A DNA stretch of 64,000 bases from a bacterium (GTDB taxonomy: Bacteria > UBA8248): positions 1,309 to 65,308 of the forward strand of contig JAJEJD010000012.1 of the NCBI GenBank assembly GCA_022828125.1. The letters are read 5' to 3'. Below are positions 23,567-45,814 of this stretch, piece after piece. How positions within the stretch are numbered: the stretch's first letter is position 1; each line of letters begins with the position of its first letter. A program made the translations under genes and the position numbers. The notes beneath the pieces are model-generated. The model made no database searches. It was not told where the DNA came from and was given only the letters and a program-made list of their open reading frames with translations.

Positions 23567-23588
23567 ATCTTGCTCCTTTCCATCGAGG

Positions 23589-24248: not shown

Positions 24249-24251
24249 GGC

Positions 24252-24797: not shown

Positions 24798-24886
24798 GAA
24801 CCCTCCTCCCCGAATTCCGGCAAGAATGGAATCATCATGGAAACCTGCAGCCTTAGTTTACTGGAAGTTTCACGAACCGCCCATCA

Positions 24887-25270
24887 TCACGGATTGCGCT
24901 TCACCCACGGGAATTTCTCGTCGATCCCCGGCCAGATCTCGCGGATGGCGAAAAAGCATATCGCTACCCAGATGGCGAGGCCCACGTCGAAGCCCTCGAG
25001 TACCCGCACCATCCAGATGAAATCGAACACGCCCAGCACCAGCACCGAGAGGTAACAGCTCCACGCGATCCCCCGCAGTGTCGCCAAGCCAAAGGCGCAC
25101 AAGGCCGCCCCTGCCCCCAGCGTCGCCCAGCCGTAGCCCACCCTGCCCGGCTGGTCCATATACATCGCAGACACGGTGAAGACGATGAGCAACGCGCCGA
25201 CCAGCAGCGTGGTCCTGGCCGCGCGATTCGCGTCGAACACTCTTTCTTCACTTACGGGGGGTTCGTTCAT
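24887..25270 (-). CDS. Small integral membrane protein (3-4 predicted TM helices)
   Basis: Start taken at the internal ATG (MNEPPVSEE...). Hydrophobic segments LLVGALLIVFTV, GWATLGAGAALCAFGLATL, LSVLVLGVFDFIWMV, LAIWVAICFFAI. The upstream part of the ORF is GC-noise-like. Confidence 0.4.
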   Translation of the reverse strand: MNEPPVSEERVFDANRAARTTLLVGALLIVFTVSAMYMDQPGRVGYGWATLGAGAALCAFGLATLRGIAWSCYLSVLVLGVFDFIWMVRVLEGFDVGLAIWVAICFFAIREIWPGIDEKFPWVKRNP

Positions 25271-30187: not shown

Positions 30188-31681
30188 CTAGCGCGGCATG
30201 AGGTTCCTGATCTGCGCTTCGAGCGGCTCCGTTGTGAGCTTCTTGAAGCCTAAGTGGCGGGAGAGGGAATCGCCGTCGTGGCGCTGGCCGTCGCGCCAGA
30301 TTTCCGCCAGGAATCCGCCGCTCTTTTGGTTGGCCCACCACCTCCTGCCGAATTTCGTTTTGAGCACTTCCGACATCTGGGCCTGGAGCATCCACGCCCT
30401 CAGGTAATTCGCGCAGTAGAAAAACGGGTCCACGTCGTCGAGATAGGAGACTTGCGGGTATTCCACACCCGTCGCCATGCTCAGCTTCTCCCGGTACGCG
30501 GCGTCCTTGCCCCCGAGTTCCGCGCCCCGGTGAAGCGTGAGTTCATAGTCGATCTTCGCCGCATAGCGCCTGAGCATGTAGAGTTCGAAAAGCGCATGGT
30601 GCGCCAGAAACGCCACATAGTCCGACGCCTCCCCGCCCAGGGCGTCTTCCAACCAGAGCGGTTCAAACAACAGGTGATCGAAGAGCATGGCGAAGCCCTC
30701 CGTCACGGAGTTGTCCCCCAGGCGCTTCCACTCGAAAGGCGCGTCCGCCGCCACGCCTGCGAAATGGAGCGCGTGGCCGAGTTCGTGCCAGAACGCGCGG
30801 TAATCGTCATAACCGCCCCGGGGCCTGATGACGAGATAGACCTCATCCGGCACGCGCAAGGAGGCGCAAAACGCGCGGGGGCTCTTCAAGGGGCGATCCT
30901 CGATGTCGAGGCGCACCCTGCCCTCCGCCTGAAGATCAAGGCCCATCGAGGCGCAAACCTCCCGCGCCGAGGTTTCGATCTTCTCCGCCGGGAAAAGAGC
31001 GTCGTATTCGGCGCCCCGAAAACAGTACTGCGCGTCGTGTCGCTGCGCGGACGCCGGGGGAACCCCCGCCCGGCTCAGTTCCTCTGCCATCGCCTCGGCG
31101 TAAAGCGCTTCGGTGCGTCCAAGAAAGCGCTGCATCTCTTCGCGAACAGGCTCAAGCGGGTAGCGCTTCACCGCCGCCATCATCCCCAGGTAGCCCTCGA
31201 AACCCAAATCATCGGCCATCCCGTGGGTCGTGCGATGAATCTGCTCCAGAAATTCGTTCTTATCCACCAAGGCCTCACAGCGGGCGTTTTCCAGAAAACG
31301 CCGCTTCTCACGGTCCGGCTCGTTCAGGAGCGCGACGGCGCTTTGCCGGTAGGGGATGGATTCGCCCTCGGAAGTTTTCACGGTGGTTTTGGTTTCGAAT
31401 AAAAGCGCCTGCTCGCTCAATTCCCTCGTCGCGTCGCGTATGTGGGCCAGCGTCAAAAAGCCGCGCAACTCGGCCAATCGCAAGCGCTCGGCCTCGTCTT
31501 CTTCGGAACCTGCGAGAGACGCGAGCGCCTCGACGTTCTCGCGCGTGAAGAGGTCGGCGTATTCGGCGAAAATCTCGCTGATGCGCACGTCTTCCTTGAG
31601 ACCGGCGCCAACCTCGTACCACTCTTTTCGCGACTCGCCGAGGAAAGCCTCGGCGCGGGTTCGGATGTCCGCCAGGCGCAT
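30188..31681 (-). CDS. Zinc metallopeptidase, M3-family oligoendopeptidase-like (HExxH)
   Basis: 497 aa with WHELGHALH zinc-binding motif and a downstream Glu. M3 versus M32 not resolvable by eye. Confidence 0.55.
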   Translation of the reverse strand: MRLADIRTRAEAFLGESRKEWYEVGAGLKEDVRISEIFAEYADLFTRENVEALASLAGSEEDEAERLRLAELRGFLTLAHIRDATRELSEQALLFETKTTVKTSEGESIPYRQSAVALLNEPDREKRRFLENARCEALVDKNEFLEQIHRTTHGMADDLGFEGYLGMMAAVKRYPLEPVREEMQRFLGRTEALYAEAMAEELSRAGVPPASAQRHDAQYCFRGAEYDALFPAEKIETSAREVCASMGLDLQAEGRVRLDIEDRPLKSPRAFCASLRVPDEVYLVIRPRGGYDDYRAFWHELGHALHFAGVAADAPFEWKRLGDNSVTEGFAMLFDHLLFEPLWLEDALGGEASDYVAFLAHHALFELYMLRRYAAKIDYELTLHRGAELGGKDAAYREKLSMATGVEYPQVSYLDDVDPFFYCANYLRAWMLQAQMSEVLKTKFGRRWWANQKSGGFLAEIWRDGQRHDGDSLSRHLGFKKLTTEPLEAQIRNLMPR

Positions 31682-32942: not shown

Positions 32943-34403
32943 TCAACGCGGCTGCGGGCGCATCGCCCTTTCGTACAAATCGACGTAGCGGGGAGCGACG
33001 CCGTCCCAACCGGAGTCCTTCTCCATCGCGTTGCACATCATCATACGCCAAAGGCCCCGATCCAAAAACACCCGGCGAATCCTCTCCATCCCGGCGAGGA
33101 AATCGGCAGGGGCGAACGCGTCGAAATGGAAGCCGGTGTCGACGTTCGGGTCGGGCGCGGGCGATGAGAAAACGGAATCCGCGAGTCCGCCGACCCGCCG
33201 CACGTAAGGCAGGGCGCCGTAGCGCATGGCGTACAGCTGGTTCAGGCCCGAAGGCTCATACCGCGAAGGCATGAGCAGGACGTCGCCGCCTGCGTACATG
33301 CGGTGGGAGAGCGCCTCGTCATAGGCGGACACGAATGCCACCCGGCCCGGATGGGCTGCGGCGGCCTCGGCGAGGCCTTCCTCCAACGCCTCCTCGCCGG
33401 TTCCCAGGACGGCCAGGCTTACGCCCAGGTCCATCAATTCATCCATGTTGTCGATAATCAGATCGATTCCCTTCTGATGCGCCAGCCGCGAGACGACGAC
33501 GCACAACGGCCCCTCCGCGTCCGAATCCAGGCCCAACTCAGCCTTTAGCGCAGACTTGCACTTCGCCTTGCCCTCCGGGCGCGCGAGCGAGAACGGCGCC
33601 GGAATGTGGGGGTCGGTCTCCGGGTTCCAGACCGCATCGTCGATGCCGTTCATGATGCCGAACAAAGAAGACGACCTGAGAGCGACCACGCCTTCCAGCC
33701 CCTCTCCCTGCTCTTCCGTCTGCATCTCCTGCGCATAGCGCTCGCTCACGGTGGAGACGGCGTCGCTGAACAAAATACCGCCCTTCATGAAGTTCAAGTC
33801 GCCGTAGAACTCCAGGCCGTCAACGCCCATCATTTCATCGGGCAGGCGCGTGTGCGTGAAATCATCCGGGTGGAAGCGGCCCTGGTACGCCAGGTTGTGA
33901 ACCGTGAAGACGGTGGAGACCCCACGCCATTTCGCATCGTCGGCGCAGCGGTATTTCAGCAAGGGCGGCACCAGGGCGCTTTGCCAGTCGTGGCAATGGA
34001 TGATGAACGGATACGCTCCCTCCTGTTCCATGTGGGAGAGCGCGCCTCTGGCGAAACGGGCGAAGCGCTCCGCGTTGTCGGGAAACGCCCCGCGCGCGTC
34101 TCCGTAGAATCCCTCCCTGTCGAACAGATCGTCGGCGGCGACGAGTCTGATCGAAACGCCCCCGTGTTCGAGCGAGAACACCTGGTAGCGCGCTTCGGCA
34201 AAGACGTCTGCCACCTGCGCGGGAGAACCGGGATCATGCTCATTGAGAACAGCGCGGTACGCGGGCAGATAGACGCAAACCCGGTGGCCCATCCTCGCCA
34301 GGGCCGCCGGCAGCGCGCCGACGACGTCGCCCAGTCCGCCCGATTTTGCGAAGGGGAACATCTCGCTCGCCACCATGGTGATTTCGATTGGTTTGTCCGT
34401 CAT
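32943..34403 (-). CDS. glgA: Glycogen synthase (ADP-glucose type, GT5)
   Basis: MVASEMFPFAKSGGLGDV, the canonical KxGGL ADP-glucose site. GT-B fold. The ORF's first ATG is at 34469; a start at 34403 (MTDKPIEIT...) is more consistent with GlgA N-termini. Confidence 0.85.
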   Translation of the reverse strand: MTDKPIEITMVASEMFPFAKSGGLGDVVGALPAALARMGHRVCVYLPAYRAVLNEHDPGSPAQVADVFAEARYQVFSLEHGGVSIRLVAADDLFDREGFYGDARGAFPDNAERFARFARGALSHMEQEGAYPFIIHCHDWQSALVPPLLKYRCADDAKWRGVSTVFTVHNLAYQGRFHPDDFTHTRLPDEMMGVDGLEFYGDLNFMKGGILFSDAVSTVSERYAQEMQTEEQGEGLEGVVALRSSSLFGIMNGIDDAVWNPETDPHIPAPFSLARPEGKAKCKSALKAELGLDSDAEGPLCVVVSRLAHQKGIDLIIDNMDELMDLGVSLAVLGTGEEALEEGLAEAAAAHPGRVAFVSAYDEALSHRMYAGGDVLLMPSRYEPSGLNQLYAMRYGALPYVRRVGGLADSVFSSPAPDPNVDTGFHFDAFAPADFLAGMERIRRVFLDRGLWRMMMCNAMEKDSGWDGVAPRYVDLYERAMRPQPR

Positions 34404-34545
34404 GCCGCCTGTTCCAAGGTTGATGGGTTCCTCGCCCTGCCGTCTCATGCCCTCGACAATCCGATGCATTCGGCAATCTATACATGAATCATATCCTGTA
34501 TGTTACAATCGAATGAAGGGTTCATGAAAAAGGCGTGGAGGTTCC

Positions 34546-34953
34546 ATGCGGTATCTGGTGCGCGGAAAAGTCATCGAGGGCAAAAGCGCCGCCCTGCTCG
34601 AAGCCATCGAATCGGGCGAACTCGGGCGAGGCTCCATCGCGCACAGAACTTTCCTGAAATGCATGAAAGAGGCGAGGCTCACCAGGGAGGGCCAGGTTCG
34701 CTGGCTCGAGGTCTGCTACTGCCGCGAGGCGTTTGGACCGGGTTATGAGTTGTATGAGGAACTACCCTACTGGGAGGCGTATTTCGAGGAGCTCGACGTG
34801 CGCTTCGCCCGCAAACCCGAAGACTGCGAAGGCTATCCCGTCTGCGGCGATTGCGACTGCACGGAAAAGCTCGAGGCGAAACTGGAAAAACTGGGGGTTC
34901 CCTTCTTCAAGCATCTGAAAGAAACCGTATCTCCCCCCAAAGCCTCAACCTGA
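34546..34953 (+). CDS. Hypothetical small Cys-rich protein
   Basis: 135 aa ORF on the opposite strand between glgA and the acyltransferase gene. Cys pattern CYC...C-x6-CGDCDC. No recognisable family. Preceded by an AT-rich putative promoter (TGTTACAAT). Confidence 0.3.
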   Translation: MRYLVRGKVIEGKSAALLEAIESGELGRGSIAHRTFLKCMKEARLTREGQVRWLEVCYCREAFGPGYELYEELPYWEAYFEELDVRFARKPEDCEGYPVCGDCDCTEKLEAKLEKLGVPFFKHLKETVSPPKAST

Positions 34954-36012
34954 ATCGGCCCACCGCGATCGTCCCTGGCTTTTGGTGAGCTTCCACCTGT
35001 CATGAATCCATAAATACTGCTCCGGTCCTTTCCGGACTAAATTTTCCGTCTCCTCGTTCACCAACTTTGTAAGCCTCTCCATTTCTTTCTTCGCGCTTTT
35101 TGCGTTCATATCGGGCGCAATCGGCTCGCTCAGCAAGATTTCATAGCGCCGGGCGTCGCCTTTCCTGAGGCACGAGATGAGAACGAGGGGCCGGTTGTAC
35201 AAAACAGCGAGTGCTGCGGGAGCGGGCGTCGTCCTGGCGGGCCTGCCGAAAAACGGCGCGTCAATCCCCTCGCCTCCCGCGTTCTGATCCGCCAGAATCG
35301 CCACCGAGCGGCCCTTGCGCAGCGCCTCGCGCAGGTGGAAGAAGGCGTTTTTCTTCGAAAGAATCTCCTGCCCCGACGAAGCGCGCATTTCATACAGCGT
35401 GGCTTCGAGCTTTCGGTTGTCCAGGGGACGCACGGGGACGGTGAGCGGAATCCCGGCCAGCGCGCCGGCATGGGCGAGGAATTCCCAGTTCCCCAGATGC
35501 GGCACGACGAACACGCAGCCGCCCGCATCTTCGTGAATCGCGCGCACCTTATCTATCGTCTCCTCCGCCTCGTCCACGATCTCGCGCACCGTTTTCTCCG
35601 CGCGTCGCAAGTCGAAACGGGTGAGAAACTTCGCTCCCTCCAGACAGGTGAGGATGAATGAGCGGCAGCTGCGCCTCGCAAGATTCAGGCGCTGCGCCTC
35701 GTCGAGTTCGGGGAACGCGATGCGCAGGTTGGCGCGCGCGATGCGCCTTCTCCTGGGAGCAAACCGGAAAATCGCCTCTCCCGCGGCGGCGGCAACCGCG
35801 CGGCAGACACCGTAGGGAAGCAGTCGGATCAGCCTCAGAAACGAAACGATCACGGCGTATTCCACCCATTGGTGAAACGCGCCTTTGTCCTTGCTGCGCT
35901 TTCTCCCGGGACGCTCCGCGGATTTGCTCACTGCGCGGCGACGATGGTCGCGGAGGATTGCCCGCCGATGCCGTGACTCAGGGACAGGAACGCGCTCCCC
36001 GAGACGGCGCAT
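34945..36012 (-). CDS. LpxL/HtrB-family lysophospholipid (lipid A-type) acyltransferase. Terminal gene of the FAS/PKS-like operon.
   Basis: LPLAT-family motifs (VPHLGNWEF HxxxxD-type site, ILADQNAG, FFGRPA). The first ATG overlaps the upstream KS by 85 bp, so the true start is probably a downstream non-ATG codon. Confidence 0.7.
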   Translation of the reverse strand: MRRLGERVPVPESRHRRAILRDHRRRAVSKSAERPGRKRSKDKGAFHQWVEYAVIVSFLRLIRLLPYGVCRAVAAAAGEAIFRFAPRRRRIARANLRIAFPELDEAQRLNLARRSCRSFILTCLEGAKFLTRFDLRRAEKTVREIVDEAEETIDKVRAIHEDAGGCVFVVPHLGNWEFLAHAGALAGIPLTVPVRPLDNRKLEATLYEMRASSGQEILSKKNAFFHLREALRKGRSVAILADQNAGGEGIDAPFFGRPARTTPAPAALAVLYNRPLVLISCLRKGDARRYEILLSEPIAPDMNAKSAKKEMERLTKLVNEETENLVRKGPEQYLWIHDRWKLTKSQGRSRWADSG

Positions 36013-37226
36013 TCTTCGGTGGGGATGTGGAGGGCCTCGAAGGCATCGTCTTTTTGCTCAAAGCCCGGCGTGGGCGGAAGGCGGCCCTCTTTGAGAGCGG
36101 ATAACCCCAACACGATCTCGGCCAAATCGCTGGCGGAGCCCATGTGCCCCGTATAGGGTTTCCAGCCGGCAAGCGGTACCGAGTCCTTCGCCATATCGCC
36201 GTATTCCAGCAAGGCGGAGAGTTCGCCCGCGTCTCCTTTGGGCGTCGCGCTCCCGTGGGGAAGAACGAAGGCCAGCTCATCGCTCGTGACGCCCGCCTCG
36301 GCCACCGCCGACTCCACCGAACGGCGCACCGCTCCGGTGGGAACGGGAATATAGCGTTCAGAGGAGTATTCCTGACAATTCGCCGTCCCCAGGACGCGGC
36401 CCAGCGGCTCGGCTCCCCGCGCCCGGGCGGATTCGGCGCTCTCGAGCAACAGGGCGGCGGCGCCCTCTCCGGGGAAGAATCCATCGCGCCTCTTGTCGAA
36501 GGGCCGAAATGACGCCGCCCCCTCTCTCGCCCGGGAGAGAATACCCAGCCCGTCGAGTTCCAGGAGCACCATGGGATGCGCCCAGCTCCCGCAGCCCACG
36601 ACCAGGCCGACGTCGGCCTCGTCGAAGCGAAGCACGCGATCGCAATTCTCGATCGCCTGCGCGCCGCAGGAAGACAGGCTGGAAAAACTGCCGTTCGGCC
36701 CCATGAACTCGTACATGCCCGACAGGTAGCTGAAAAGGTTGTTGGGCAGGCCCTCAAGCAGGAAAAACGGGCTTACCTTGTGGAGCGCCGCTTCGTTGAG
36801 GGAGGCGGGTTCGGGCGCGTCCCACGCATCGCCGGCCGTTTGTTTGAGCGCGGCATAAAAATCCACATAGCCCACCCTCGTGAAATCGCCCGAACCGACG
36901 TAGAGGGCTTTTCTCTCGGGCGCCACCTCTCCCGTGTCGAGACCAGAGCACGCCACCGCCTCGGCGGCGGCGTAAAGCCCCAGGATGGAGCTTCTGTTCA
37001 GGAATTTCCGTTGGCTCGCGAGTTTGGGCGGCACCTCGGGCGGGTCTTCATGGCCGGGGACTGCGCCATGGTAGGCGAAATTATCCGGAAGAGAGCCGTT
37101 ATCCTCGCTTGGATGATGGGCGATCCCGCATTTTCCGGCGCACAGCGACTCCCAGTTCTCCCCGGCATTCCCGCCTATGGAAGTCAGCAACCCCGCGCCC
37201 GTAATCCAGACTTCCTTGCCTCGCAT
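35928..37226 (-). CDS. Beta-ketoacyl-ACP synthase family protein (KS, active-site Cys present)
   Basis: 432 aa. SSLSSCGAQA active-site Cys region. HGSAT and TGHMGSASD His motifs. Thiolase fold. Confidence 0.75.
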   Translation of the reverse strand: MRGKEVWITGAGLLTSIGGNAGENWESLCAGKCGIAHHPSEDNGSLPDNFAYHGAVPGHEDPPEVPPKLASQRKFLNRSSILGLYAAAEAVACSGLDTGEVAPERKALYVGSGDFTRVGYVDFYAALKQTAGDAWDAPEPASLNEAALHKVSPFFLLEGLPNNLFSYLSGMYEFMGPNGSFSSLSSCGAQAIENCDRVLRFDEADVGLVVGCGSWAHPMVLLELDGLGILSRAREGAASFRPFDKRRDGFFPGEGAAALLLESAESARARGAEPLGRVLGTANCQEYSSERYIPVPTGAVRRSVESAVAEAGVTSDELAFVLPHGSATPKGDAGELSALLEYGDMAKDSVPLAGWKPYTGHMGSASDLAEIVLGLSALKEGRLPPTPGFEQKDDAFEALHIPTEECAVSGSAFLSLSHGIGGQSSATIVAAQ

Positions 37227-37229
37227 CGC

Positions 37230-37691
37230 TCATCCCGCCTGGCTCAACTGAATTTCGCGGTTCAGCACACGAAAATGATGACGCTGCTCCTCGGGATCCT
37301 CATAATCCGCGAGCGGCGCCACCCTTGCGCCAAATTCGGCGACCACCCGGCGTTCTCCCTCCACGGTGGCAACGCCCCTGAAGTTCTTGAGACCTTCTTC
37401 CTCTCCCCGCGCCTCCACGTTCAGGAGGACCTGATCCCCCGGAAAGGCGAATCCATAGTACCTGACGCTTCGAACCTTTTCCAAAAGAATCCACCGGGTG
37501 AAATCGGATTCCGCCGCTTCGAGCCAGCCTGCCAGCTGCACCAGGCCTTCGAATATCAGCGCGCCCGGCATGACGGGAAACCGGGGAAAGTGAAACTCGA
37601 GAAAATCCTCGCTCATCGTAATGTTCTTCACCCCTTCGATGGAGGCCCCCGCCTCCCACGCCGTTACCCTGTCCACAAGCATATATCTCAA
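37230..37691 (-). CDS. FabA/FabZ-like 3-hydroxyacyl-ACP dehydratase (hotdog)
   Basis: 153 aa. FPRFPVMPGALIFEGLVQLAGW matches the FabZ HxxxGxxxxP-type region (His replaced in context). ApeP/ApeI-like. Confidence 0.65.
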   Translation of the reverse strand: MRYMLVDRVTAWEAGASIEGVKNITMSEDFLEFHFPRFPVMPGALIFEGLVQLAGWLEAAESDFTRWILLEKVRSVRYYGFAFPGDQVLLNVEARGEEEGLKNFRGVATVEGERRVVAEFGARVAPLADYEDPEEQRHHFRVLNREIQLSQAG

Positions 37692-37700
37692 AACAAACTC

Positions 37701-38117
37701 CTAGCCGGCTTCTTCCGGCGCGTCTTCGCCCAGGAGAATCACCTGTGCCACCGCCAACTCCAGTGTATGGCTCATCGAAATCGTTAGCTGATTGATCTTC
37801 TTTCGTGCGCTCATGCGCTCCATCGAACCGCTGAGCTTGAGGCTGGGCTTTCCCGATGCCGCCGATTCCACTTCGATCTCGCGCAGCCGGCCCCTGCCGC
37901 CCAACCCTCCCGGTTCGGATATCCCGAGGCCGAAGGCCTTGAGACAGGCCTCTTTCGCCGCGAAGCGGGCCGCGAAATGTGGATAGGGGTTCCGGCGCTT
38001 CAGGCAATACGCCCGCTCGGCTTCGGTGAACACGTCTTCGCCGAACGCCTCGTGGCGCTCATAGGCTTCCTTCAAACGCGCCACCTCCACCAAATCCACT
38101 CCCTGGTACAGACGCAT
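37701..38117 (-). CDS. acpS: Holo-ACP synthase (4-phosphopantetheinyl transferase, AcpS type)
   Basis: 138 aa from the internal ATG: MRLYQGVDLVEV...RFAAKEACLKAFG...ISMSHTLELAVAQVIL. The listed 398-aa ORF is a spurious upstream extension running out of frame across fabG. Confidence 0.75.
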   Translation of the reverse strand: MRLYQGVDLVEVARLKEAYERHEAFGEDVFTEAERAYCLKRRNPYPHFAARFAAKEACLKAFGLGISEPGGLGGRGRLREIEVESAASGKPSLKLSGSMERMSARKKINQLTISMSHTLELAVAQVILLGEDAPEEAG

Positions 38118-38134
38118 CCTGAAATTCCCCCGCT

Positions 38135-38887
38135 CTAGCCGGTGAGCAGGCCGCCGTCCACGGCAATCGCCTGGCCGTTGATGTAATCCGACTCCGCCGA
38201 AGCCAGGAAGACCACGAGCCTGGCCACGTCCTCGGGCTCGCCGAAGCGGCCCGCCGGTATGCGCTGCATAATCAAGTCTCCGCCCTTCTCGCGCACGCGC
38301 TCGCTCATGTCGGTGACGATCATGCCCGGCAAGATGGTGTTGAACTGGATGCCCCTTTTTCCCATCTCGGCGGCGCAGGCGCGCATGAAAGCGATGATGC
38401 CCGCCTTGGCGGAGGCGTAGTTCGTCTGTCCGGCCCCGCCCGAAACCCCCATGACGGAGGAGATGCTGATCACCTTGCCGGATCGCTTCCTGAGCATGAT
38501 CTCGCCGGCCGCCTTCGTGCAGTGGTAAGCGCCGTCCAGGCTCACGCCGAGCACCTTCCGCCAGCCGTCGGGCTTCATGGTGAGCAGCAAGGTGTCGTGA
38601 ATCACGCCCGCGTTGTTCACCAGGATGTCGAGCGTGCCGAAATCTTCCTTTACCCGCTCGAACATCGCCGTCACGTCCTCGAAAGAGGACACGTCGGCCT
38701 GGTAGGCGCGCGCCTGCCCGCCGGCCGATTCTATCTCCCCCCTCACCTCCTCGGCGGCCTCCGCCGAGCGGCTGTAGTTGATGGCCACCGAAGCACCGGC
38801 CTCGGCCAGGGCCGTGCAGCAGGCGCGCCCGATACCCCGCCCGCCTCCGGTCACCAGCGCGATTTTCCCGCTCAAATCGATCTTCAT
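38135..38887 (-). CDS. fabG: 3-oxoacyl-ACP reductase
   Basis: 250 aa. TGGGRGIG Rossmann motif. NNAG. S...YxxxK catalytic triad (YASAKAG). Confidence 0.85.
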   Translation of the reverse strand: MKIDLSGKIALVTGGGRGIGRACCTALAEAGASVAINYSRSAEAAEEVRGEIESAGGQARAYQADVSSFEDVTAMFERVKEDFGTLDILVNNAGVIHDTLLLTMKPDGWRKVLGVSLDGAYHCTKAAGEIMLRKRSGKVISISSVMGVSGGAGQTNYASAKAGIIAFMRACAAEMGKRGIQFNTILPGMIVTDMSERVREKGGDLIMQRIPAGRFGEPEDVARLVVFLASAESDYINGQAIAVDGGLLTG

Positions 38888-38904
38888 TGCGAATCACCTC
38901 TCAT

Positions 38905-40170
38905 CTAGGCCGCCTTTCTCACGAGCAAGGTGGCGTTTTGTCCGCCGAAGCCAAAGGAATTCGTGATGGCGGCGGGCACGGGCATTTCTCTCGCCCCCTC
39001 GGCCACGTAGTCGAGATCGCACTTCGGGTCCGGATTCTCAAGGCACGTCGTAGGATGCACGATATCGCGCGCGACGCTCAAGGCCGTGAAGATGAATTCG
39101 GGCGCGCCGCAGGCGGCGATAAGATGCCCGATCATGGATTTGGAAGAACTCACCGCCAGCGAATCCGCCCGCGCGCCGAACACCTCGCGAATCGCCCCGG
39201 TCTCGACCGGATCATTGAGTTTCGTGCCCGTGCCGTGCGCGTTCACGTATGTAATGTCATCAGGACCAAGGCCCGCATCCTCCATCGCCTCGCTCATCGA
39301 GCGAACGGCGCCCCGGCCCGCCGGGTGCGGGGCCGTCACCTGGTGCGCGTCCATGCTCGCGCCATAGCCCGACAAAGCGGCGTAGGGCGCAGCGCCCCGC
39401 GCGCGCGCATGGGTTTCCGATTCGAGAACCACCACGCCCGCTCCTTCGCCCACGGCGAGGCCGGAGCGTTTTCTGTCGAACGGGCGGCATATGGGGTCTT
39501 TCGATTTGGACGCAGCGCCCAGGAGGAGGAATACGGCCATTCCGACGGGGTGGATCATCGAATCGGCCCCGCCGCAAAGAACCACGTCCGCCTCGCCTCT
39601 GCGGATCATGCGCATCCCGAGGCCTATCGCCTGGCCCGCCGCCGCACAGGCGGAGGTGATGGTGCCGGTAGGACCGGCGAGTTCGAACCACTCCGCCATC
39701 AGGGAGGTCGCCCGCTCGGGCGGGTTGTTGAAGTAACCGGAGGCGTGCGTCGCCTCAAGCTCTCTGGCGAAGCGGGCGGCGTCGAAACCGTTTTCAGGGT
39801 CCGCCCAGGCGGCGAAATCCTCGAGCCGGTAGCTGCTCAGTCCCGTCCCCATCACCACGCCCGCGCGTTCGGGGGCATAATCGCCGGGGCGCATTCCGGC
39901 GTCGGCCACCGCGTTCTGCGCGGCGTCGAGCGCGAACAACACCCTGCGCTCCCCCTCGCCCGCATATTCCTCGGGCAGCCTCTCCCGTATGGCGCGGAGC
40001 GTTTCCTCTGAAACCTCGCCCGCTCCGGCGACGGGCAGCGCCTGCGCGTCGAAGGACTGAATCGGCGCAAGGCCCGATTCGCCGGCCAGCGCGCACCGCC
40101 AGCAAGTCTCCACGTCGGCGCCAAGGGAGGTCACCATGCCGAGACCGGTGATGAAAACCGGCGCGCTCAT
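38905..40170 (-). CDS. Beta-ketoacyl-ACP synthase I/II-like (KS, Cys-His-His)
   Basis: 421 aa. ITSACAAAG active site. NAHGTGT. SKSMIGH. 4-bp overlap with the upstream dehydratase. Confidence 0.85.
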   Translation of the reverse strand: MSAPVFITGLGMVTSLGADVETCWRCALAGESGLAPIQSFDAQALPVAGAGEVSEETLRAIRERLPEEYAGEGERRVLFALDAAQNAVADAGMRPGDYAPERAGVVMGTGLSSYRLEDFAAWADPENGFDAARFARELEATHASGYFNNPPERATSLMAEWFELAGPTGTITSACAAAGQAIGLGMRMIRRGEADVVLCGGADSMIHPVGMAVFLLLGAASKSKDPICRPFDRKRSGLAVGEGAGVVVLESETHARARGAAPYAALSGYGASMDAHQVTAPHPAGRGAVRSMSEAMEDAGLGPDDITYVNAHGTGTKLNDPVETGAIREVFGARADSLAVSSSKSMIGHLIAACGAPEFIFTALSVARDIVHPTTCLENPDPKCDLDYVAEGAREMPVPAAITNSFGFGGQNATLLVRKAA

Positions 40171-40625
40171 GCCGTCTCCTCGAACGCCGGCCAGCCGTAG
40201 CTTCTGAAGCGCTCCCTTAAACCATCGGGGTCGTCGTTGGGAAAGTGGGGATACACGAACCGCTCGGCCTTGGCCACAGCGACGCCGTCCTTTTCAATAC
40301 GCGCGCGGCACAGGCTCGCCCGTTCGTTCGTATCGATCATCTCGCCGTGAATCTCCAGGGACACGCCCGGGCGCAGGTCGCTCGCCACCTCCACGTCGTC
40401 GATGAGCGATATGACGCACGAGGTCTTGAAATCATACGTGTAGATTACGAGCCACCCCGTAATCTGCGCCATCGCCTCGATGAGGATAGAGCCGGGCACG
40501 ATGGGGGCGCGGTTGAAATGGGCGTTCAGGTACGCTTCTGAAAGCGGAAACGTCTTGACGCCCACGACGCGCTCGCCGCGCACCATCTCCTTGATCTGAT
40601 CGAAAAAGAGAAACCGCAATTTCAC
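40167..40625 (-). CDS. FabA/FabZ-like dehydratase (hotdog), second copy
   Basis: 152 aa. NAHFNRAPIVPGSILIEAMAQITGW, FabZ-like motif with catalytic His. Confidence 0.7.
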   Translation of the reverse strand: MKLRFLFFDQIKEMVRGERVVGVKTFPLSEAYLNAHFNRAPIVPGSILIEAMAQITGWLVIYTYDFKTSCVISLIDDVEVASDLRPGVSLEIHGEMIDTNERASLCRARIEKDGVAVAKAERFVYPHFPNDDPDGLRERFRSYGWPAFEETA

Positions 40626-40634
40626 ATTCTCCCG

Positions 40635-41825
40635 TCAAGCGCCTTTTCCCACCACCAGCCCGGAGCATACGCCGTCGAAACCCTGGAGAAGCACGAGCGC
40701 GTTGTTGAGTTCATCCCGCCCGGAGCCGTCCGTCGTATCCCGGAATAACTCATCCTCCGCTGCGGAGGATGGGGGCGTCGCGCCTTCGGCCAGCGCTTTC
40801 ATCGCCATGATCAGGTCCAGCGCCGGGCTTCCCCCCCAAAGGTGGCCGAATACGCCCTTCGTCGCAAGCCCCCAAGGTTTGTGATGCCCGAAAACGGAGG
40901 AAATCGCTTCCGCCTCCGCGTTATCCGCCCGAGATTCGCCTTCTCCATGAATCACGAGGAGGTCTACATCCTCAGGCTTGAGACCCGCGCTGACGAGCGC
41001 TCCCCGGGCCGATTCCTGAACCGCGCGCGCGAGGCCGCCTCTTTTTTCTAATGCACGAACAGAACAATGCCCCTTGAGCCAGCCTAGTACTTTAGATGTG
41101 TCGGCGCCCTCAGGACTATTGAGGCGAATCACGCCCGCTCCCTCGCCCAATCCCCCCGCTTGGGGCCAGACGCCCCGCCGCACCGCGCGGGCCAGCATCC
41201 TTGCAGAAACCACCCCGCTCACGCCGGCGCAGAGAGCAAGCCTGGCCTTGCCTGATCCGACCGAGTCCGCCGCCTCGCATATAGCGCGCGCCGTCGCCTC
41301 GGCGCCCGCGCTGAAAACGGCGTTCTCGCCCCGCCACCTGTGCTGAATCGCCGCCTGGCTGAAGCCTATCGCGTTCAACATACCCAGCACCCATAAGGGG
41401 TGGATACTGTCCATCCCCTCGCTGAAGAAATGTTCGAGGTCCACCCGGCCCTCCGATTCCCTCACCGCGCCGAGCAAATCATCTCTCCCCGGATCGACCG
41501 AGTCCATGCCCGCGAAAAAGGCGATTTCCTCCTCCGCCATCTCCGGGTCGGCGGGGGCGTCGGCCATCACGTCCTGAACCGCCGCCAGGAGCATGTGGGT
41601 ATGCCGGCCCATGATCCGCGCCGCACGTCGATCCGTGCCGACCGATTCGGGGTCGATTCGCGCGCACCGCGCCGTTTCGATGGGGGGGAATCCGGCGAGT
41701 TCGGGGTCAGCGTCCGAAGCCAAAAGGGAGCGGCCCGCGCAAAGGGCCTCCCAGGCGGGCTCGACGCCTCGCCCCGCCGCCGTTACCAGGCCGACGCCGG
41801 TGATCGGAATGGGCGGAAAATTCAC
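40635..41825 (-). CDS. Ketosynthase-like protein lacking the active-site Cys (chain-length-factor / KS-beta-like)
   Basis: Thiolase fold with HGEGES and GHLWG motifs, but the Cys position reads ...VFSAGAEATARA. Proposed GTG start at 41825 overlaps the upstream KS TGA (GTGA coupling). The ORF's first ATG is at 41945. Confidence 0.65.
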   Translation of the reverse strand: MNFPPIPITGVGLVTAAGRGVEPAWEALCAGRSLLASDADPELAGFPPIETARCARIDPESVGTDRRAARIMGRHTHMLLAAVQDVMADAPADPEMAEEEIAFFAGMDSVDPGRDDLLGAVRESEGRVDLEHFFSEGMDSIHPLWVLGMLNAIGFSQAAIQHRWRGENAVFSAGAEATARAICEAADSVGSGKARLALCAGVSGVVSARMLARAVRRGVWPQAGGLGEGAGVIRLNSPEGADTSKVLGWLKGHCSVRALEKRGGLARAVQESARGALVSAGLKPEDVDLLVIHGEGESRADNAEAEAISSVFGHHKPWGLATKGVFGHLWGGSPALDLIMAMKALAEGATPPSSAAEDELFRDTTDGSGRDELNNALVLLQGFDGVCSGLVVGKGA

Positions 41826-43132
41826 GCGATCTCGGGACCACCCAGGCAAAGACAGGCGTTCTGCCCACCGAAACCGAAGCTGTTGGAGAGAGCCACGCGA
41901 TGGGGCTGCGTCCTCGTCTCGTTGGGCACGTAGTCGAGGTCGCACTTGGGGTCGCGGTTCTGATAGTTGATGGTCGGCAGTATCTCCGAGCGGCGCATCC
42001 CCTCCACGGCCAGAATCGCCTCGACGGCCCCCGCCGCGCCGATGGTGTGGCCGATCATGGATTTGTTGGAGCTGACGGGCATCTTCTCCGCGTGGGCGCC
42101 GAACACCTCCTTGATGGCCCTGGTTTCGGTGGAATCGTTCTTGGGCGTCGAGGTTCCGTGCGCGTTGACGTATTCGACCTGATCGGGCTTGAGCCGCGCG
42201 TCCTCGATCGCTTTTTTCATGGCGAACACCGCGCCGAGGCCCTTCGGGTGCATGTCGGTGATGCGAAACGCATCCGAGGAATCGCCGTAGCCGAGCACTT
42301 CGCCGAGTATCTCCGCGCCTCGCGCGCGCGCGTGTTCGTAGTTCTCAAGAACCATCGCGCCGGCGCCTTCGGACATCACGAAGCCGTTTCGCCTCCTGTC
42401 GAAGGGGCGAGACGCGCTCTGCGGGGTTTCGTATCTCTCCACGAGCGCGGTGAGCAGGACGAACCCGAGAAACCCCACGTACGTGATGGGCGCCTCGCAG
42501 CCTCCCGCCACCATGACGTCGGCCTTGGCGTCGCGGATGAGGCGCACCGACTCGCCGATCGCCTGCGCTCCCGCCGCGCAGGCCGAGCAAATGGAAACCA
42601 TGGGACCCCGGCAATCGAAATCGAGAGCCACGACGGAGGTCGCCACATCCGATTTTCTTCGGAAAAACGTCATCAGATCGTAAGCGCCGCGGTGTTTGAG
42701 TCCCTCGATGTCCCATCCGCCCTGCAAGGGATCTCCGTTTTCGGGCTTCCAGTAGGGAAAGATGCGGAGCAAATCTTCGATACCGGGCTGATCGCCGTGG
42801 GAGCCGAGCGCGACGCCGATTCGCTTACGCTCTGAAACTTCATCGAGACGCGCCGTCCGCGCCGCCTGGGATACGGCCACGCGCATCATGCGAACGCCCC
42901 GGGTGGAGAATTTATCGAGCCTGCGCCCCTCGCCGTTCTCCTGCGAGGCGAGCCACTCGTCGTCCACCTCGCCGGCGATCCGGCAGGGAAGTTTATCGGG
43001 GTCGAAGCGCCGCACCACGTCGATTCCCGAACGTCCCTCGCGCGCGGCGTCGAACGTGGAGGCGACGTCCCCGCCAAGGGGCGTCATCGCCCCGTATCCG
43101 GTGATCACGACCCGCCTGTCGTTACCGGCCAT
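41822..43132 (-). CDS. Beta-ketoacyl-ACP synthase II-like (KS-alpha partner)
   Basis: 436 aa. VSICSACAAGAQAIG. NAHGTSTPKND. NKSMIGHTIGAAGA. Confidence 0.85.
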   Translation of the reverse strand: MAGNDRRVVITGYGAMTPLGGDVASTFDAAREGRSGIDVVRRFDPDKLPCRIAGEVDDEWLASQENGEGRRLDKFSTRGVRMMRVAVSQAARTARLDEVSERKRIGVALGSHGDQPGIEDLLRIFPYWKPENGDPLQGGWDIEGLKHRGAYDLMTFFRRKSDVATSVVALDFDCRGPMVSICSACAAGAQAIGESVRLIRDAKADVMVAGGCEAPITYVGFLGFVLLTALVERYETPQSASRPFDRRRNGFVMSEGAGAMVLENYEHARARGAEILGEVLGYGDSSDAFRITDMHPKGLGAVFAMKKAIEDARLKPDQVEYVNAHGTSTPKNDSTETRAIKEVFGAHAEKMPVSSNKSMIGHTIGAAGAVEAILAVEGMRRSEILPTINYQNRDPKCDLDYVPNETRTQPHRVALSNSFGFGGQNACLCLGGPEIA

Positions 43133-43176
43133 TCACATGTTCTCCCGGTAAAACGGCTTGAATGAAACCGACGGCC

Positions 43177-43740
43177 TCAGGAGGAGAAGAGGCCCTTTTC
43201 CTCCTGCACCCGGTTCAGCCAGCTCTGGACCACTTCATCACCGCTGGGCAAAGAGGCGGGTTCGTTCGTCTCCGCGCATACGATGCGCGTTCCATCCTCG
43301 GCCTTCCAGTCCGCCCCCGCCGGGCTCTTCTCGGGCAGGCAGTTCAGCACGTCGCGCACCGCTCCCGCCAGCGTCTTCGGCGTGACGAGGGCCGGAAGCT
43401 CGTCCACGGGGGTTCCCGGTTCGAGATCGCCGGCCGCTTCGTTCAGGCGCAACCTCAAGACCTCGACCCCGGTTTCGGTCACCTCGCTCTCCTCGTTGAT
43501 GGCCACGCCCTCGCCGAACATCTCCTCCACGTGTTCCAGAACGAAATTGCGCGCCATCTTGATGCCGAACACCTGCTCGAGACGGAAATTCACGTCCAGA
43601 AAATCGAGCGACAAAACGCCCAGGTCGTCCACCAGGGAACTGTCCGGCTCGATGGTCTCCTCGTCGATCCCCGTTGTGTGAGCGATCGCCTTTTTCACTT
43701 CATCCAAAATCGTATCGTCTGATACCAGGTTTTGCGACAT
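43177..43740 (-). CDS. Acyl carrier protein domain with a ~100-aa C-terminal extension
   Basis: N-terminal 85 aa carry the phosphopantetheine site DDLGVLSLDFLDVNFRLEQVFG (ACP DSL-type). The remainder is acidic and unassigned. Confidence 0.6.
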   Translation of the reverse strand: MSQNLVSDDTILDEVKKAIAHTTGIDEETIEPDSSLVDDLGVLSLDFLDVNFRLEQVFGIKMARNFVLEHVEEMFGEGVAINEESEVTETGVEVLRLRLNEAAGDLEPGTPVDELPALVTPKTLAGAVRDVLNCLPEKSPAGADWKAEDGTRIVCAETNEPASLPSGDEVVQSWLNRVQEEKGLFSS

Positions 43741-43876
43741 TGCCGTCCTCTGTAGCGTTCAATCGCGCAGCCCGTCCTCGCGCATGGGCGCGCACGGAAA
43801 ATCCCAACTCATGCAAGCGTATACAACCAAGGAGGGAAGCGAAAATCAACCTTCCCCCGAGGCATCATACCTCATT

Positions 43877-44638
43877 TCATCGTTCCGGCGGGCGGCCTGC
43901 CCGGTTGCCGAGTCCCCTGTCGACCACGAGGGTCTGCCCCCGTATGGAAGCCGCGCCCGCGCCGGCGAGAAAATAAACCGATTCGGCCACTTCTTCGGGC
44001 GTCACGAAATAACGCTCCGGCAACTCTTCCAGCTCCGGTTGAATCATGCGCAGCGTCTTGAACGAATCCGTCTTCACCAACCCCGCGCAGACGGCGTTGA
44101 CCGACACGCCTCTCTCTTCGAAACTCTCCGCCCAATGCGTGACCGCCGCCTCCATGGCCGCCTTCATGGGCCCCAGCGGGTATTCGGGATGATAGAAACG
44201 GCTCCCCAGGCTCGAGATGAACACGACGGCCCCGCCCCGGCGCGAGAGCAGTGGAAGCGCTCCCTGCATACAGAAGACGTTGCCCAGAAAATTCGTCTCC
44301 ACCAGAAGCTTGAGGTCGCGCTCCAACAGCTTTTCCCACGGCTTGAAGGGCGCGCGCGCCGCGTTCAGGACGAGCGCGTCGAGCCGTCCGAATTCCTCTT
44401 CCACCTCCGCGAACATGGCCTTGACGGCGTCTTTTTTCGAAATGTCCGCAGGAACGGCGACCGCCCGCCCACCGGCGGCCTCGAACTCGCGGCAAAGCTC
44501 TGCCGCCATCCGGGCGGAGCCGCCTTTGGCGTCCCTGTGGTTCAGGGCCAGATGCGCGCCCTCGCGCGCGAAGCGCCTCGCAATGGCCGCGCCGATGCCG
44601 CGCGAGCCGCCGGTCACCAGGACGACCTTGCCCTTCAT
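43877..44638 (-). CDS. SDR-family oxidoreductase, FabL/FabI-like (Y-x6-K) putative enoyl-ACP reductase
   Basis: KVVLVTGGSRGIG. NAA. YHPEYPLGPMKAA gives Y-x6-K spacing. Start placed at the internal ATG (MKGKVV...); the ORF extends to 44704. Confidence 0.6.
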   Translation of the reverse strand: MKGKVVLVTGGSRGIGAAIARRFAREGAHLALNHRDAKGGSARMAAELCREFEAAGGRAVAVPADISKKDAVKAMFAEVEEEFGRLDALVLNAARAPFKPWEKLLERDLKLLVETNFLGNVFCMQGALPLLSRRGGAVVFISSLGSRFYHPEYPLGPMKAAMEAAVTHWAESFEERGVSVNAVCAGLVKTDSFKTLRMIQPELEELPERYFVTPEEVAESVYFLAGAGAASIRGQTLVVDRGLGNRAGRPPER

Positions 44639-44926
44639 ATCCCCCGATTCCGGGGCGTTCATAACCGCTCCCTCGCTTTCAACCCGCATTCGCACCGCTT
44701 CCATCCCGAAAAGAGAAAAACCCTCTCCCTCCCGGAAAACGCCGCGGGATCACGGGCTGAAAATTTATATCCCACGAACGCGCCTCCATCAAACGCCGCG
44801 CGGGAATCCCCGAAATAAAGGATTGAATCCCCACCCGAGACCTCATACAATGGTTTTCTTTCTTTTCTCCTTGAACCGATACAGTCTTTGTTCTTGGATT
44901 CATAAGGCGGACCGGGGGGCAAACAA

Positions 44927-45814
44927 ATGGAATATCTCGACATCAAGGAAACGCCGAAGCTCAGAGACCCCGCTTTACTCATGGCCTTCGCGGGCTGGAA
45001 CGACGCCAGCAGCGCCGCCACGACTGCCGCGAGTTTCATCACCGAGAAAATGGGGGGTGCGGAATTCGCCCGAATCGATTCCGACCCCTTCTATAATTTT
45101 CAGGACATGCGGCCCCACGTGAGCCTCGACGAGGACAGCCGCCGAAAGATCACCTGGCCCTCGAACACGTTCTACGCATGCGAGACCCCGAACCTCGAAC
45201 ACGACGTGGTGGTTTTCCTGGGCGTGGAGCCTCATCTGCAATGGGGGCGCTTTTCGAAAATCATATTGTCCATGGTCCGCGAATGCCGGGTGCGGATGGC
45301 CGTGACGGTGGGCGCCCTGCTCGCCGACGTCTACCACCGAAACCGCGTCCGGATAACCGGCACCTCCACGAACCCGGACCTGGCTTCTCAACTGGGCCTC
45401 AAGCCCTCGCGCTATGAGGGACCCACCGGAATCGTGGGAATCCTGAACAATCTGTTCCGCGACGAAAACCTGCCCGCCGTGAGCGTCTGGGCGAACGTGC
45501 CCCACTACGTGAACGTGACGCCCAACCCGAAGGCGGCGCTCGCCCTGGTGGAGCGGCTCAGCGAATTCCTCTCCTACCCCCTCAATCTGTCGGAACTCGA
45601 AGCGGGCGCGCATGAATTCGAAGAGAAGGTCGACGAGGCGCTCGAGAAGAACAAATCGGTGAGAGACTACGTGGAGCAACTCAAGCTCAGAGACGACGGT
45701 TTCGATGAAGAAACCCAGCCGGGCGAGCTTCCCTCGGGAGATGAGCTGGCCAGGGAACTGGAGCGCTTCCTGAGAAACCGGGGCGCCGATGAGGATGCGC
45801 CCGAGGAGAATTAG
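44927..45814 (+). CDS. PAC2-family protein
   Basis: 295 aa. N-terminal LLMAFAGWNDASSA resembles the PAC2-family (PF09754) hallmark AFEGWNDAG. Confidence 0.5.
   Translation: MEYLDIKETPKLRDPALLMAFAGWNDASSAATTAASFITEKMGGAEFARIDSDPFYNFQDMRPHVSLDEDSRRKITWPSNTFYACETPNLEHDVVVFLGVEPHLQWGRFSKIILSMVRECRVRMAVTVGALLADVYHRNRVRITGTSTNPDLASQLGLKPSRYEGPTGIVGILNNLFRDENLPAVSVWANVPHYVNVTPNPKAALALVERLSEFLSYPLNLSELEAGAHEFEEKVDEALEKNKSVRDYVEQLKLRDDGFDEETQPGELPSGDELARELERFLRNRGADEDAPEEN

Follow-up and report, generated by a model that had tools for sequence, protein, structure and literature searches.

A candidate second type II fatty acid synthase with a proposed role in lipid A acylation in non-proteobacterial diderm bacteria

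What is the product of an eleven-gene operon in which ketosynthases, reductases, dehydratases and a private carrier protein are joined by a terminal LpxL-family acyltransferase, and where does that product go? The operon occupies 34945–44704 on the minus strand of a 64-kb stretch of DNA with ~63% G+C (hereafter the window; positions 1,309 to 65,308 of contig JAJEJD010000012.1, assembly GCA_022828125.1) from an uncultured, Nitrospinota-like bacterium of the lineage UBA8248. An initial annotation made from the sequence alone framed it as aryl-polyene-, flexirubin- or xanthomonadin-like machinery, although it also proposed a distinct, possibly undescribed pathway in which an LpxL-type transferase moves an unusual acyl chain to a lipid A-like acceptor. 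The second of these ideas appears to hold and the first does not. We estimate a probability of about 60% that the operon is a largely self-contained second type II fatty acid synthase (FAS) whose product is placed by the LpxL-family enzyme on lipid A, the presumed acceptor. By analogy with the AcpXL/LpxXL system, and given the retention of a private acyl carrier protein (ACP), phosphopantetheinyl transferase (AcpS) and reductase, the product is probably very long and saturated.

A fatty-acid-type enzyme set

Eleven same-direction open reading frames (ORFs) fill the interval, and gene calls on the source contig independently return the identical set, in agreement with the positions, tight packing and 136-bp gap reported in the initial annotation. 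That gap lies at the 5′ end, between the genes for a short-chain dehydrogenase/reductase (SDR) and the ACP (ACPx), and 44 bp separate ACPx from the first ketosynthase (KS) gene, KS1. KS1 overlaps KS2 by 4 bp, 9 bp lie between KS2 and a first dehydratase gene (DH1), and DH1 overlaps KS3 by 4 bp. Gaps of 17 bp (KS3–FabG), 17 bp (FabG–AcpS) and 9 bp (AcpS to the second dehydratase gene, DH2) follow; DH2 and KS4 are 3 bp apart, and KS4 overlaps the LpxL-family gene by 4 bp. Every family assignment of the eleven proteins is backed by both Pfam and NCBIfam. Promoter and terminator scans of 34300–45200 gave site numbers not above those in shuffled sequence and thus leave the 136-bp gap uninterpretable from such scans. 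A scan of one genome per species also found relatives of ACPx in 221 species genomes; the best 80 loci were retained, and the eleven proteins were mapped onto all of these by tblastn (L numbers below are our labels).

A four-way alignment of the ketosynthases divides them into two enzymes with the nucleophilic Cys, KS1 and KS3, and two without it, KS2 and KS4. KS1 (41822–43132; Cys185/His325/Lys357/His362) and KS3 (38905–40170; Cys175/His312/Lys344/His349) are FabF-like condensing enzymes whose C-H-K-H pattern is kept in 78 of 80 and 45 of 47 orthologues, respectively. On the fabF model TIGR03150 (cut-off 493.75) KS1 reaches 450.6 bits and KS3 384 bits, and on the subfamily model NF005589 KS1 scores 441.8 bits, above the cut-off of 387. 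KS2 (40635–41825) is a full-length partner of 396 aa with both Pfam ketoacyl-synt and Ketoacyl-synt_C domains; it has Ala175 at the nucleophile position, which varies between A, P, S and G over 49 orthologues, in line with the CLF-like (chain-length-factor-like) KS without Cys that had been placed after a Cys-KS. The final ketosynthase, KS4 (35928–37226), had been counted as a third Cys-KS. Its nucleophile position is instead Ser185 (codon TCT, 36674–36672) with His324/Lys356/His361 retained, and the S-H-K-H pattern recurs in 44 of 45 orthologues with the Ser strictly conserved. FabF proteins are the nearest Protein Data Bank (PDB) structures for all four (KS1 339 bits with 3o04, KS4 134 bits, KS2 at most 66 bits); against KS1, the aryl-polyene ketosynthase structure PpApeR (4ewg) scores 211 bits, compared with 339 for FabF.

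The remaining enzymes would complete a reductive cycle. The SDR (43877–44704 as the longest ORF; the gene callers start it at 44662, giving 261 aa) matches Pfam adh_short_C2 with 165.6 bits and is a putative enoyl-ACP reductase. Its top NCBIfam model is FabL NF005975 (180.6 bits, under the cut-off of 328) and its top PDB match is B. subtilis FabL (3oic, 125 bits), with FabG structures at ~107 bits. The motif SSLGSRFYxPxYPLGxMKAA is kept in ~80 orthologues and has the spacing Y-x5-K, one residue shorter than in FabL, so that of the proposed FabL/FabI-like protein with a Y-x6-K motif the FabL affinity stands and the spacing needs correction. The FabG-type 3-oxoacyl-ACP reductase (38135–38887) scores 282.8 bits on TIGR01830 (cut-off 297.75); on the subfamily model NF009466 its 244.9 bits exceed the cut-off of 222.

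DH1 (40167–40625, its start uncertain, with callers' starts at 40586 or 40619) and DH2 (37230–37691) are FabZ-like hotdog dehydratases, matching Pfam FabA with 48.8 and 66.5 bits. Both fall below the FabZ cut-offs, with 67 and 90 bits on NF000582 (cut-off 113) and 65 and 84 bits on TIGR01750 (cut-off 155.15). The His of HF..PG and the Glu of IEAMAQ are kept in 52 DH1 orthologues, and the catalytic His and Glu of DH2 are likewise conserved; DH2 is 29–35% identical to the canonical Nitrospirota FabZ encoded beside lpxA and 28% identical to rhizobial FabZXL. The AcpS-type phosphopantetheinyl transferase (37701–38117; Pfam ACPS 57.7 bits) exceeds the TIGR00516 acpS cut-off of 59.8 with 67.8 bits, has conserved motifs and is retained in distant loci at 40–53% identity. 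Judged by their closest relatives, FabF for all four KS and FabL for the SDR, the enzymes are of FAS type rather than polyketide type.

Much of this inventory is shared with aryl-polyene, flexirubin and xanthomonadin-type type II polyketide synthases, which would anchor a polyene (pigment) acyl chain to a lipid. As in the aryl-polyene clusters of E. coli CFT073 and, with ApeO–ApeC and ApeR, of A. baumannii and X. doucetiae (PMC8358021), a KS with a Cys-less partner stands alongside two hotdog dehydratases, a ketoreductase, a discrete ACP and a lipid-anchoring acyltransferase, here a terminal member of the lysophospholipid acyltransferase (LPLAT) superfamily. A precomputed Pfam ApeI-like match on DH2 also favours this origin at first sight; it does not discriminate, because the canonical FabZ beside lpxA has the same match. 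In BLASTP comparison with E. coli CFT073 apeA–apeR (L094), E. coli fabG–acpP–fabF plus lpxL, and S. meliloti acpXL–lpxXL, FAS or XL proteins outscored the Ape proteins of E. coli for every operon protein. KS1 scores 268 bits with FabF, 239 with FabF1XL, 189 with ApeR and 152 with ApeO; KS3 215 with FabF, 196 with FabF1XL, 179 with ApeO and 166 with ApeR; KS4 132 with FabF, 115 with FabF1XL, 88 with ApeR and 50 with ApeO; and KS2 50 with FabF and 19 with ApeC. The same ranking holds for ACPx (AcpXL 57, AcpP 35, ApeF 30, ApeE 21), the two dehydratases (FabZ/FabZXL 45–74, ApeI/ApeP at most 29), FabG (EcFabG 184, ApeQ 143) and the acyltransferase (LpxXL 87, LpxL 80, ApeD 18). Membership of the family represented by the CFT073 cluster is rejected on these scores, and with it the framing of the initial annotation.

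The features that had been taken as an aryl-polyene signature, a KS/CLF pair and an LpxL-like transferase, also differ in kind. ApeC is a 240-aa, half-size CLF made of a single thiolase half (PMC8358021), whereas KS2 is full length, and E. coli ApeD belongs to PF01553, whereas the window acyltransferase belongs to PF03279. A Cys-KS together with a Cys-less KS is not polyketide-specific, because rhizobial FabF1XL and FabF2XL, the latter without the catalytic Cys, form such a pair. Aryl-polyene clusters have features of their own, namely an aryl-acid ligase, a thioesterase, a glycosyltransferase, a methyltransferase and genes for LolA/MMPL export. They lack an enoyl reductase, whereas the window operon has the FabL-like SDR. 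The ApeH ligase, ApeK thioesterase, ApeJ glycosyltransferase and ApeL/M export proteins were not found as such around the operon or in the examined 10-kb flanks of related loci, and the 64-kb window holds no ammonia lyase, ligase, thioesterase, glycosyltransferase, LolA/MMPL or other aryl-polyene accessory gene around the operon, an absence that had been pointed out from the start. Taken together, an aryl-polyene-type product is very unlikely. A separate candidate, Ralstonia match H4 from a search of PLSDB with the LpxL-like query, was considered as an aryl-polyene cluster and set aside as an isolated acyltransferase.

The carrier protein, the acyltransferase and the rhizobial lipid A system

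ACPx (43177–43740; PP-binding 31.6 bits) is 187 aa long with an AcpXL-like core and, as first described, an extension of ~100 aa; the extension is conserved, and the protein belongs to a full-length family of 185–192 aa that its sources name only 'phosphopantetheine-binding protein', 'acyl carrier protein' or 'hypothetical'. Its phosphopantetheine serine, Ser44, sits in DSLDFLD and is conserved among orthologues. The top NCBIfam model is that of the AcpXL family (NF005079, 51.5 bits, missing the cut-off of 83), and on the AcpP model TIGR00517 the protein reaches 34.8 bits against a cut-off of 70.45. The core finds its top PDB sequence match in RPA2022 of Rhodopseudomonas palustris, a 'specialized ACP' (2kw2, 44.8 bits; next ACP 31.6), which we take to be an AcpXL orthologue. 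It shares 53% identity with S. meliloti AcpXL, limited to the first 51 aligned residues, and mycobacterial AcpM is among the matches, weakly (~25 bits).

An AlphaFold2 model of ACPx (66 sequences) predicts one compact body with high confidence (pLDDT 90.3, pTM 0.86). The first predicted helices span residues 8–23, 44–58 (with Ser44 at the start) and 67–75, and are followed by helices at 89–103, 112–118 and 121–132, a beta-hairpin at 145–155 and a C-terminal helix at 167–182. Most members of the family have a CxxC...CxxC zinc-ribbon signature in the hairpin region of the extension (residues ~136–160). In the Nitrospinota/Tectomicrobia clade to which the window belongs, three of these four Cys are replaced (EKSP---AG...VCAETNE); the hairpin is still predicted confidently, in a fold that is predicted not to change. 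Searched with a profile, 1.84 billion representative proteins yielded 562 matches at E ≤ 1e-10, of which 29 reached E ≤ 1e-30. Many proteins of 130–140 aa (e.g. P0355–P0389) match the profile at ~7–132, covering the core and the helical insert without the hairpin or C-terminal helix, and may be intermediates between AcpXL-size and ACPx-size carriers. No match to the ACPx N-domain was found by tblastn of PLSDB.

Extended carriers of this kind have a precedent in mycobacteria, where a second FAS-II (AcpM, KasA/KasB, HadAB/BC, MabA and InhA) serves envelope lipid synthesis with an extended ACP, two KS and paired hotdog dehydratases. The window operon resembles it as a putative second FAS-II for an envelope lipid with a C-terminally extended ACP and paired hotdog dehydratases; unlike it, the operon has no meromycolate/Pks13 context and is predicted to pass its product to an LpxL-family enzyme.

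That enzyme, encoded at 34945–36012 (callers' start 35931, 328 aa), matches PF03279 with 176 bits against a gathering cut-off of 22.3. It has the catalytic HX4(D/E) motif as HX4E in PHLGNWE, and all 40 of 40 orthologues share PH[LI]GNWE. Among 17 NCBIfam LpxL-type models the best is that of the LpxXL family (NF005120, 142.6 bits; cut-off 273 missed). The second-best NCBIfam model is the 'lysophospholipid acyltransferase family protein' NF006487 (127 bits), and on the LpxL/LpxP subfamily model TIGR02207 the protein scores 108.6 bits, missing the cut-off of 297.8. PDB matches are LpxM (5kn7) and PatA (39 bits), and identity to S. meliloti LpxXL is 28% over 269 aa. A PLSDB search with the acyltransferase found an S. 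meliloti replicon in which the sole match was lpxXL, inside acpXL–fabZXL–fabF2XL–fabF1XL–adh–lpxXL. Two independent proteins of the operon, ACPx and the acyltransferase, are thus nearest, among curated models, to families of the lipid A system for VLCFA (fatty acids with very long chains), both under cut-off.

The product of that system in rhizobia is an (omega-1)-hydroxy C26–C30 acyl chain on lipid A. Its genes form the alphaproteobacterial cluster acpXL–fabZXL–fabF2XL–fabF1XL–(adhA2XL)–lpxXL (PMC5613085, PMC11901934). Taking our reference proteins from an S. meliloti record (L087), we fixed the identity of the NCBIfam models by scoring these proteins on them: AcpXL reaches 189.5 bits on NF005079, LpxXL 492.5 on NF005120, FabF1XL 770 on NF005076 and FabF2XL 618 on NF005084. 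On the FabF1XL model (cut-off 629) KS1 and KS3 reach 336 and 266 bits, and on the FabF2XL model (cut-off 320) KS4, KS3, KS1 and KS2 reach 64, 54, 28 and 16 bits; for each of the four, generic FabF models give higher scores than either XL model.

In layout the two clusters are alike: each has a private ACP, a FabZ-like dehydratase, a Cys-KS, a Cys-less KS and a terminal LpxL-family transferase, all co-directional and with 4-bp coupling into the transferase gene. Compared with the rhizobial cluster, the window operon has an extra KS pair and an extra dehydratase, encodes a FabG and an AcpS of its own, and has the FabL-like SDR in place of a zinc-dependent alcohol dehydrogenase. ACPx is twice as long as AcpXL, with its zinc-ribbon-type extension, and, unlike in the rhizobial cluster, the constant Cys-less partner bears a conserved Ser and the KS proteins are nearer to FabF than to FabF1XL or FabF2XL. 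The hosts differ as well, Nitrospinota, Nitrospirota, NC10 and Desulfobacterota for the window-type cluster versus Alphaproteobacteria for the rhizobial one. Relative to known systems, the 187-aa ACP with a zinc-ribbon-type extension, the Ser-KS, the FabL-like reductase and the dedicated AcpS are new.

Distribution and lipid A gene context

The closest ACPx loci (70–97% identity) come from metagenome-assembled genomes (MAGs) labelled Nitrospinota, Nitrospinaceae and Tectomicrobia. Remoter loci (47–54% identity) bear the labels Nitrospirota/Thermodesulfovibrionia, NC10, Dissulfurispiraceae, Syntrophobacteraceae and Desulfosarcina, with one Chloroflexota. The full order SDR–ACPx–KS1–KS2–DH1–KS3–FabG–AcpS–DH2–KS4–LpxL is maintained across Nitrospinota, Tectomicrobia, Nitrospirota, NC10 and Desulfobacterota labels, and such conservation of gene order at 40–50% protein identity in several phyla is far beyond chance.

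Shorter forms define what is constant. KS2 and KS3 are absent from a reduced form (L004, L046, L060 and L077), and KS2, KS3 and FabG from a minimal one (L091); KS2 and KS3 are present or absent jointly, the sole exception being a degraded locus (L079). The SDR gene always adjoins the ACPx gene, and KS1 is in every locus. The LpxL-family gene directly follows KS4 in 43 of the 45 loci with sufficient downstream sequence. The invariant core is therefore the SDR, ACPx, KS1, DH1, DH2 and KS4, with the LpxL-family gene in all but two loci and AcpS nearly always. From this phyletic pattern KS3 and KS2 are predicted to form an accessory pair, with KS1 and KS4 as the core. At 13584–15563 of L004 the KS4 homologue has 659 aa, including a ~270-aa C-terminal extension without a Pfam match, and no LpxL-family gene follows it. 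A literature search, in which subscription journals were thinly covered, found no description of this cluster.

Many Nitrospirota loci hold SDR–ACPx–KS1 alone at that site, with no conserved genes downstream. In this phylum the cluster is divided between two loci, each within a different lipid A gene block. SDR–ACPx–KS1 lies downstream of gnnA–gnnB in 13 distinct Nitrospirota loci, 7 of which reach far enough to show lpxD–fabZ–lpxA–lpxI, some also with bamA–skp; an oppositely oriented SLT/LysM gene stands in between. L005, L006 and L073 have SDR–ACPx–KS1 in this position. The gnnA and gnnB genes suggest a lipid A backbone with 2,3-diamino-glucose. In L005 and L006 (13477–15306), a gene for a 609-aa B12-binding radical SAM protein lies ~1.6 kb downstream of KS1, and L071 has a relative, grouped in the same ORF cluster, on the downstream side; as it is not conserved in other loci, it was rejected as a cluster member.

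The second Nitrospirota locus (L088 and L089, from the same MAG lineage, with the locus-tag prefix ISR96) has KS2–DH1–KS3–FabG–AcpS–DH2–KS4–LpxL-like, followed immediately by lpxB–waaA–lpxK; this linkage was checked in one lineage. The LpxL-like gene there occupies the expected place of a lipid A late acyltransferase, adjacent to the genes for synthesis of the substrate of such an enzyme. Envelope genes recur beside other loci: L004 is flanked by genes for an MsbA-like ABC transporter, PAP2, a GT1 glycosyltransferase, a fatty-acid hydroxylase and a GNAT-domain protein; L091 by a PMT_2 (ArnT-like) gene and a gene with the LAB_N 'lipid A biosynthesis N-terminal domain'; and L090 has LptD ~6 kb downstream of the cluster.

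This context bears on the identity of the acceptor. PF03279 enzymes can acylate other envelope lipids, so that a glycolipid like the phosphatidylinositol mannosides, a lysophospholipid or an amino lipid might receive the chain, as the PatA match within PF03279, the rank of NF006487 as second-best model and the lack of an lpx gene in the window would allow. The best models are nevertheless of LpxXL and LpxL type, and in relatives the gene stands directly upstream of lpxB–waaA–lpxK while the other half of the cluster follows lpxD–fabZ–lpxA–lpxI–gnnA–gnnB; we therefore regard a different acceptor lipid as distinctly unlikely.

The same loci argue that the operon is not the organism's primary type II FAS, a reading that starts from the presence of a KS, ketoreductase, dehydratase, putative enoyl reductase, ACP and AcpS and from the subfamily cut-offs passed by KS1 and FabG. 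With housekeeping type II FAS the operon shares its chemistry and enzyme families, and its SDR–ACP–KS order mirrors fabG–acpP–fabF. Unlike such a system, it has a 187-aa ACP that is not AcpP-like, two Cys-less KS, a lipid A acyltransferase at the end, a patchy distribution and no FabD or FabH; these two are absent from the cluster and from the window, which has no fab or lpx gene outside the operon. The canonical FabZ beside lpxA, only 29–35% identical to DH2, means that these relatives hold separate housekeeping dehydratases, and the distance of ACPx from the AcpP model, the missing FabD and FabH and this separate FabZ together argue against a housekeeping role. DH1 and DH2 also miss the FabZ cut-offs, many genomes have only SDR–ACPx–KS1 at one site, some variants dispense with FabG, and the cluster almost always ends in a lipid A-type acyltransferase; a primary FAS is hardly credible here.

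A specialised FAS for a cofactor precursor would be a further option, such as pimeloyl-ACP for biotin. The Desulfovibrio DVU2560–2563 cluster has two FabZ-like proteins, a ketoreductase, a private ACP and a FabF-like KS (PMC10102598), all of which are found in the window operon too. Because bio genes are absent from the window and related loci, and because the cluster ends in an LpxL-family gene and is embedded among lpx genes in relatives, we give this option next to no credence.

A proposed pathway and its implications

How might a second FAS dedicated to lipid A operate? The in-cluster AcpS would convert apo-ACPx to holo-ACPx, and malonate would be loaded by a borrowed housekeeping FabD. 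KS1 would then extend the acyl chain on ACPx with malonyl units, joined in the full cluster by KS3, probably paired with KS2. We infer that KS2 and KS4 act as non-condensing partners or as malonyl-decarboxylating, priming subunits. KSQ/CLF-type proteins prime synthesis by decarboxylating malonyl-ACP, and KS4, with its His/His/Lys decarboxylation apparatus and Ser for Cys, could similarly decarboxylate malonyl-ACPx to prime the pathway or serve as a non-condensing partner of KS1. Each cycle would proceed through reduction by FabG, dehydration by DH1 and DH2 and a second reduction by the FabL-like SDR. Finally, the LpxL/LpxXL-family enzyme, translationally coupled to KS4, would move the chain from acyl-ACPx onto a Kdo2-lipid IVA-type lipid A as a secondary chain.

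The chain itself might be of ordinary length or merely modified, with the cluster insulating the acyl supply of lipid A from phospholipid synthesis. KS1 has departed little from FabF (450 bits on TIGR03150), minimal variants hold one Cys-KS, and nothing in the sequence sets the chain length, all of which is compatible with such a product. However, loci from different phyla retain the private AcpS, the reductase and the dehydratases, suggesting intermediates that housekeeping enzymes do not process. The known, characterised precedents for C-terminally extended private ACPs that feed envelope lipids, AcpXL and AcpM, carry very long chains, which also tells against an ordinary one. The retention of a private ACP along with its own AcpS, reductase and dehydratases, and the use of extended ACPs in the synthesis of VLCFA and meromycolate, together suggest a chain to which the housekeeping enzymes are poorly suited, a very long one being the simplest case. 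An ordinary chain on lipid A is accordingly unlikely in our assessment, and well above negligible.

Several observations weigh against assigning the operon to very-long-chain acylation of lipid A. No sequence feature sets the chain length, and the SDR misses the FabL cut-off and has the non-canonical Y-x5-K spacing. Every XL-family cut-off is missed, which makes the operon an analogue and not an orthologue of the rhizobial system. The acceptor is not proven by family membership, because PF03279 also contains PatA, a phosphatidylinositol-mannoside acyltransferase. No lipid A genes lie in the 64-kb window, and linkage to lpx genes was seen only in Nitrospirota relatives, which may count as one lineage. 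A separate housekeeping FAS, an AcpS or a second LpxL in this organism is presumed, and all carriers met are labelled as MAGs or uncultured isolates; a look-up of cluster members likewise returned no cultured carrier with a name.

The remainder of the window is housekeeping in character, with metG, holB, tmk, hrcA, dnaJ, prmA, purD, a recN-like gene and thiamine genes behind a thiamine pyrophosphate (TPP) riboswitch. The operon is flanked downstream by glgA and glgC and upstream by a divergent PAC2 gene. A convergent ORF of 135 aa (34546–34953, plus strand) shares 9 bp with the acyltransferase gene at the 3′ end of the latter; its product is Cys-rich close to the C-terminus (CEGYPVCGDCDC), has no Pfam match and is kept in 23 closely related loci only. 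Sizeable ORFs without Pfam matches lie at 30188–31681 (minus strand), 22751–23683 (plus) and 23616–25055 (plus); the one of 497 aa among them directly follows glgC and is conserved on the source contigs. The riboswitch (56728–56828, minus strand) matches Rfam RF00059 with 56.3 bits, where the gathering score is 54.3, and is located upstream of ORFs on the same strand at 55621–56397 and 54976–55602. Between dnaJ and prmA, a 361-aa double-hotdog protein (17221–18306, plus strand) with an FAS1_DH_region match and a weak MaoC_dehydratase match could be a further fatty-acid dehydratase or hydratase outside the function of the operon.

Beyond this one locus, we tentatively propose, at a confidence somewhat below even, that several non-proteobacterial diderm phyla (Nitrospinota, Tectomicrobia, Nitrospirota, NC10 and Desulfobacterota) share an unrecognised second FAS-II of 8–11 genes. 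It would combine a zinc-ribbon-extended ACP, a dedicated AcpS and a FabL-like reductase with a strictly conserved Ser-KS that is coupled to an LpxL-family enzyme, would supply an unusual, probably very long secondary chain of lipid A, and would have originated independently of rhizobial AcpXL/LpxXL.

If the lipid A explanation is correct, it predicts part of the outer-membrane chemistry of mostly uncultured bacteria of environmental importance, among them Nitrospinota and Nitrospirota lineages, NC10, sulfate reducers, syntrophs and sponge-associated Nitrospinota and Tectomicrobia, and the strategy of a private ACP with an LpxXL-type transferase for lipid A would reach well past Alphaproteobacteria. 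The ACP with its zinc-ribbon-type extension, the KS with Ser for Cys and both His residues kept, and the FabL-related SDR with Y-x5-K offer targets for enzymology. Annotation pipelines keyed on a KS, a CLF and two dehydratases may wrongly call such loci aryl-polyene clusters. The rhizobial VLCFA affects membrane rigidity and stress tolerance (PMC5613085); a distinctive lipid A acyl chain in these lineages, if present, could likewise influence both and would be a candidate biomarker derived from lipopolysaccharide.

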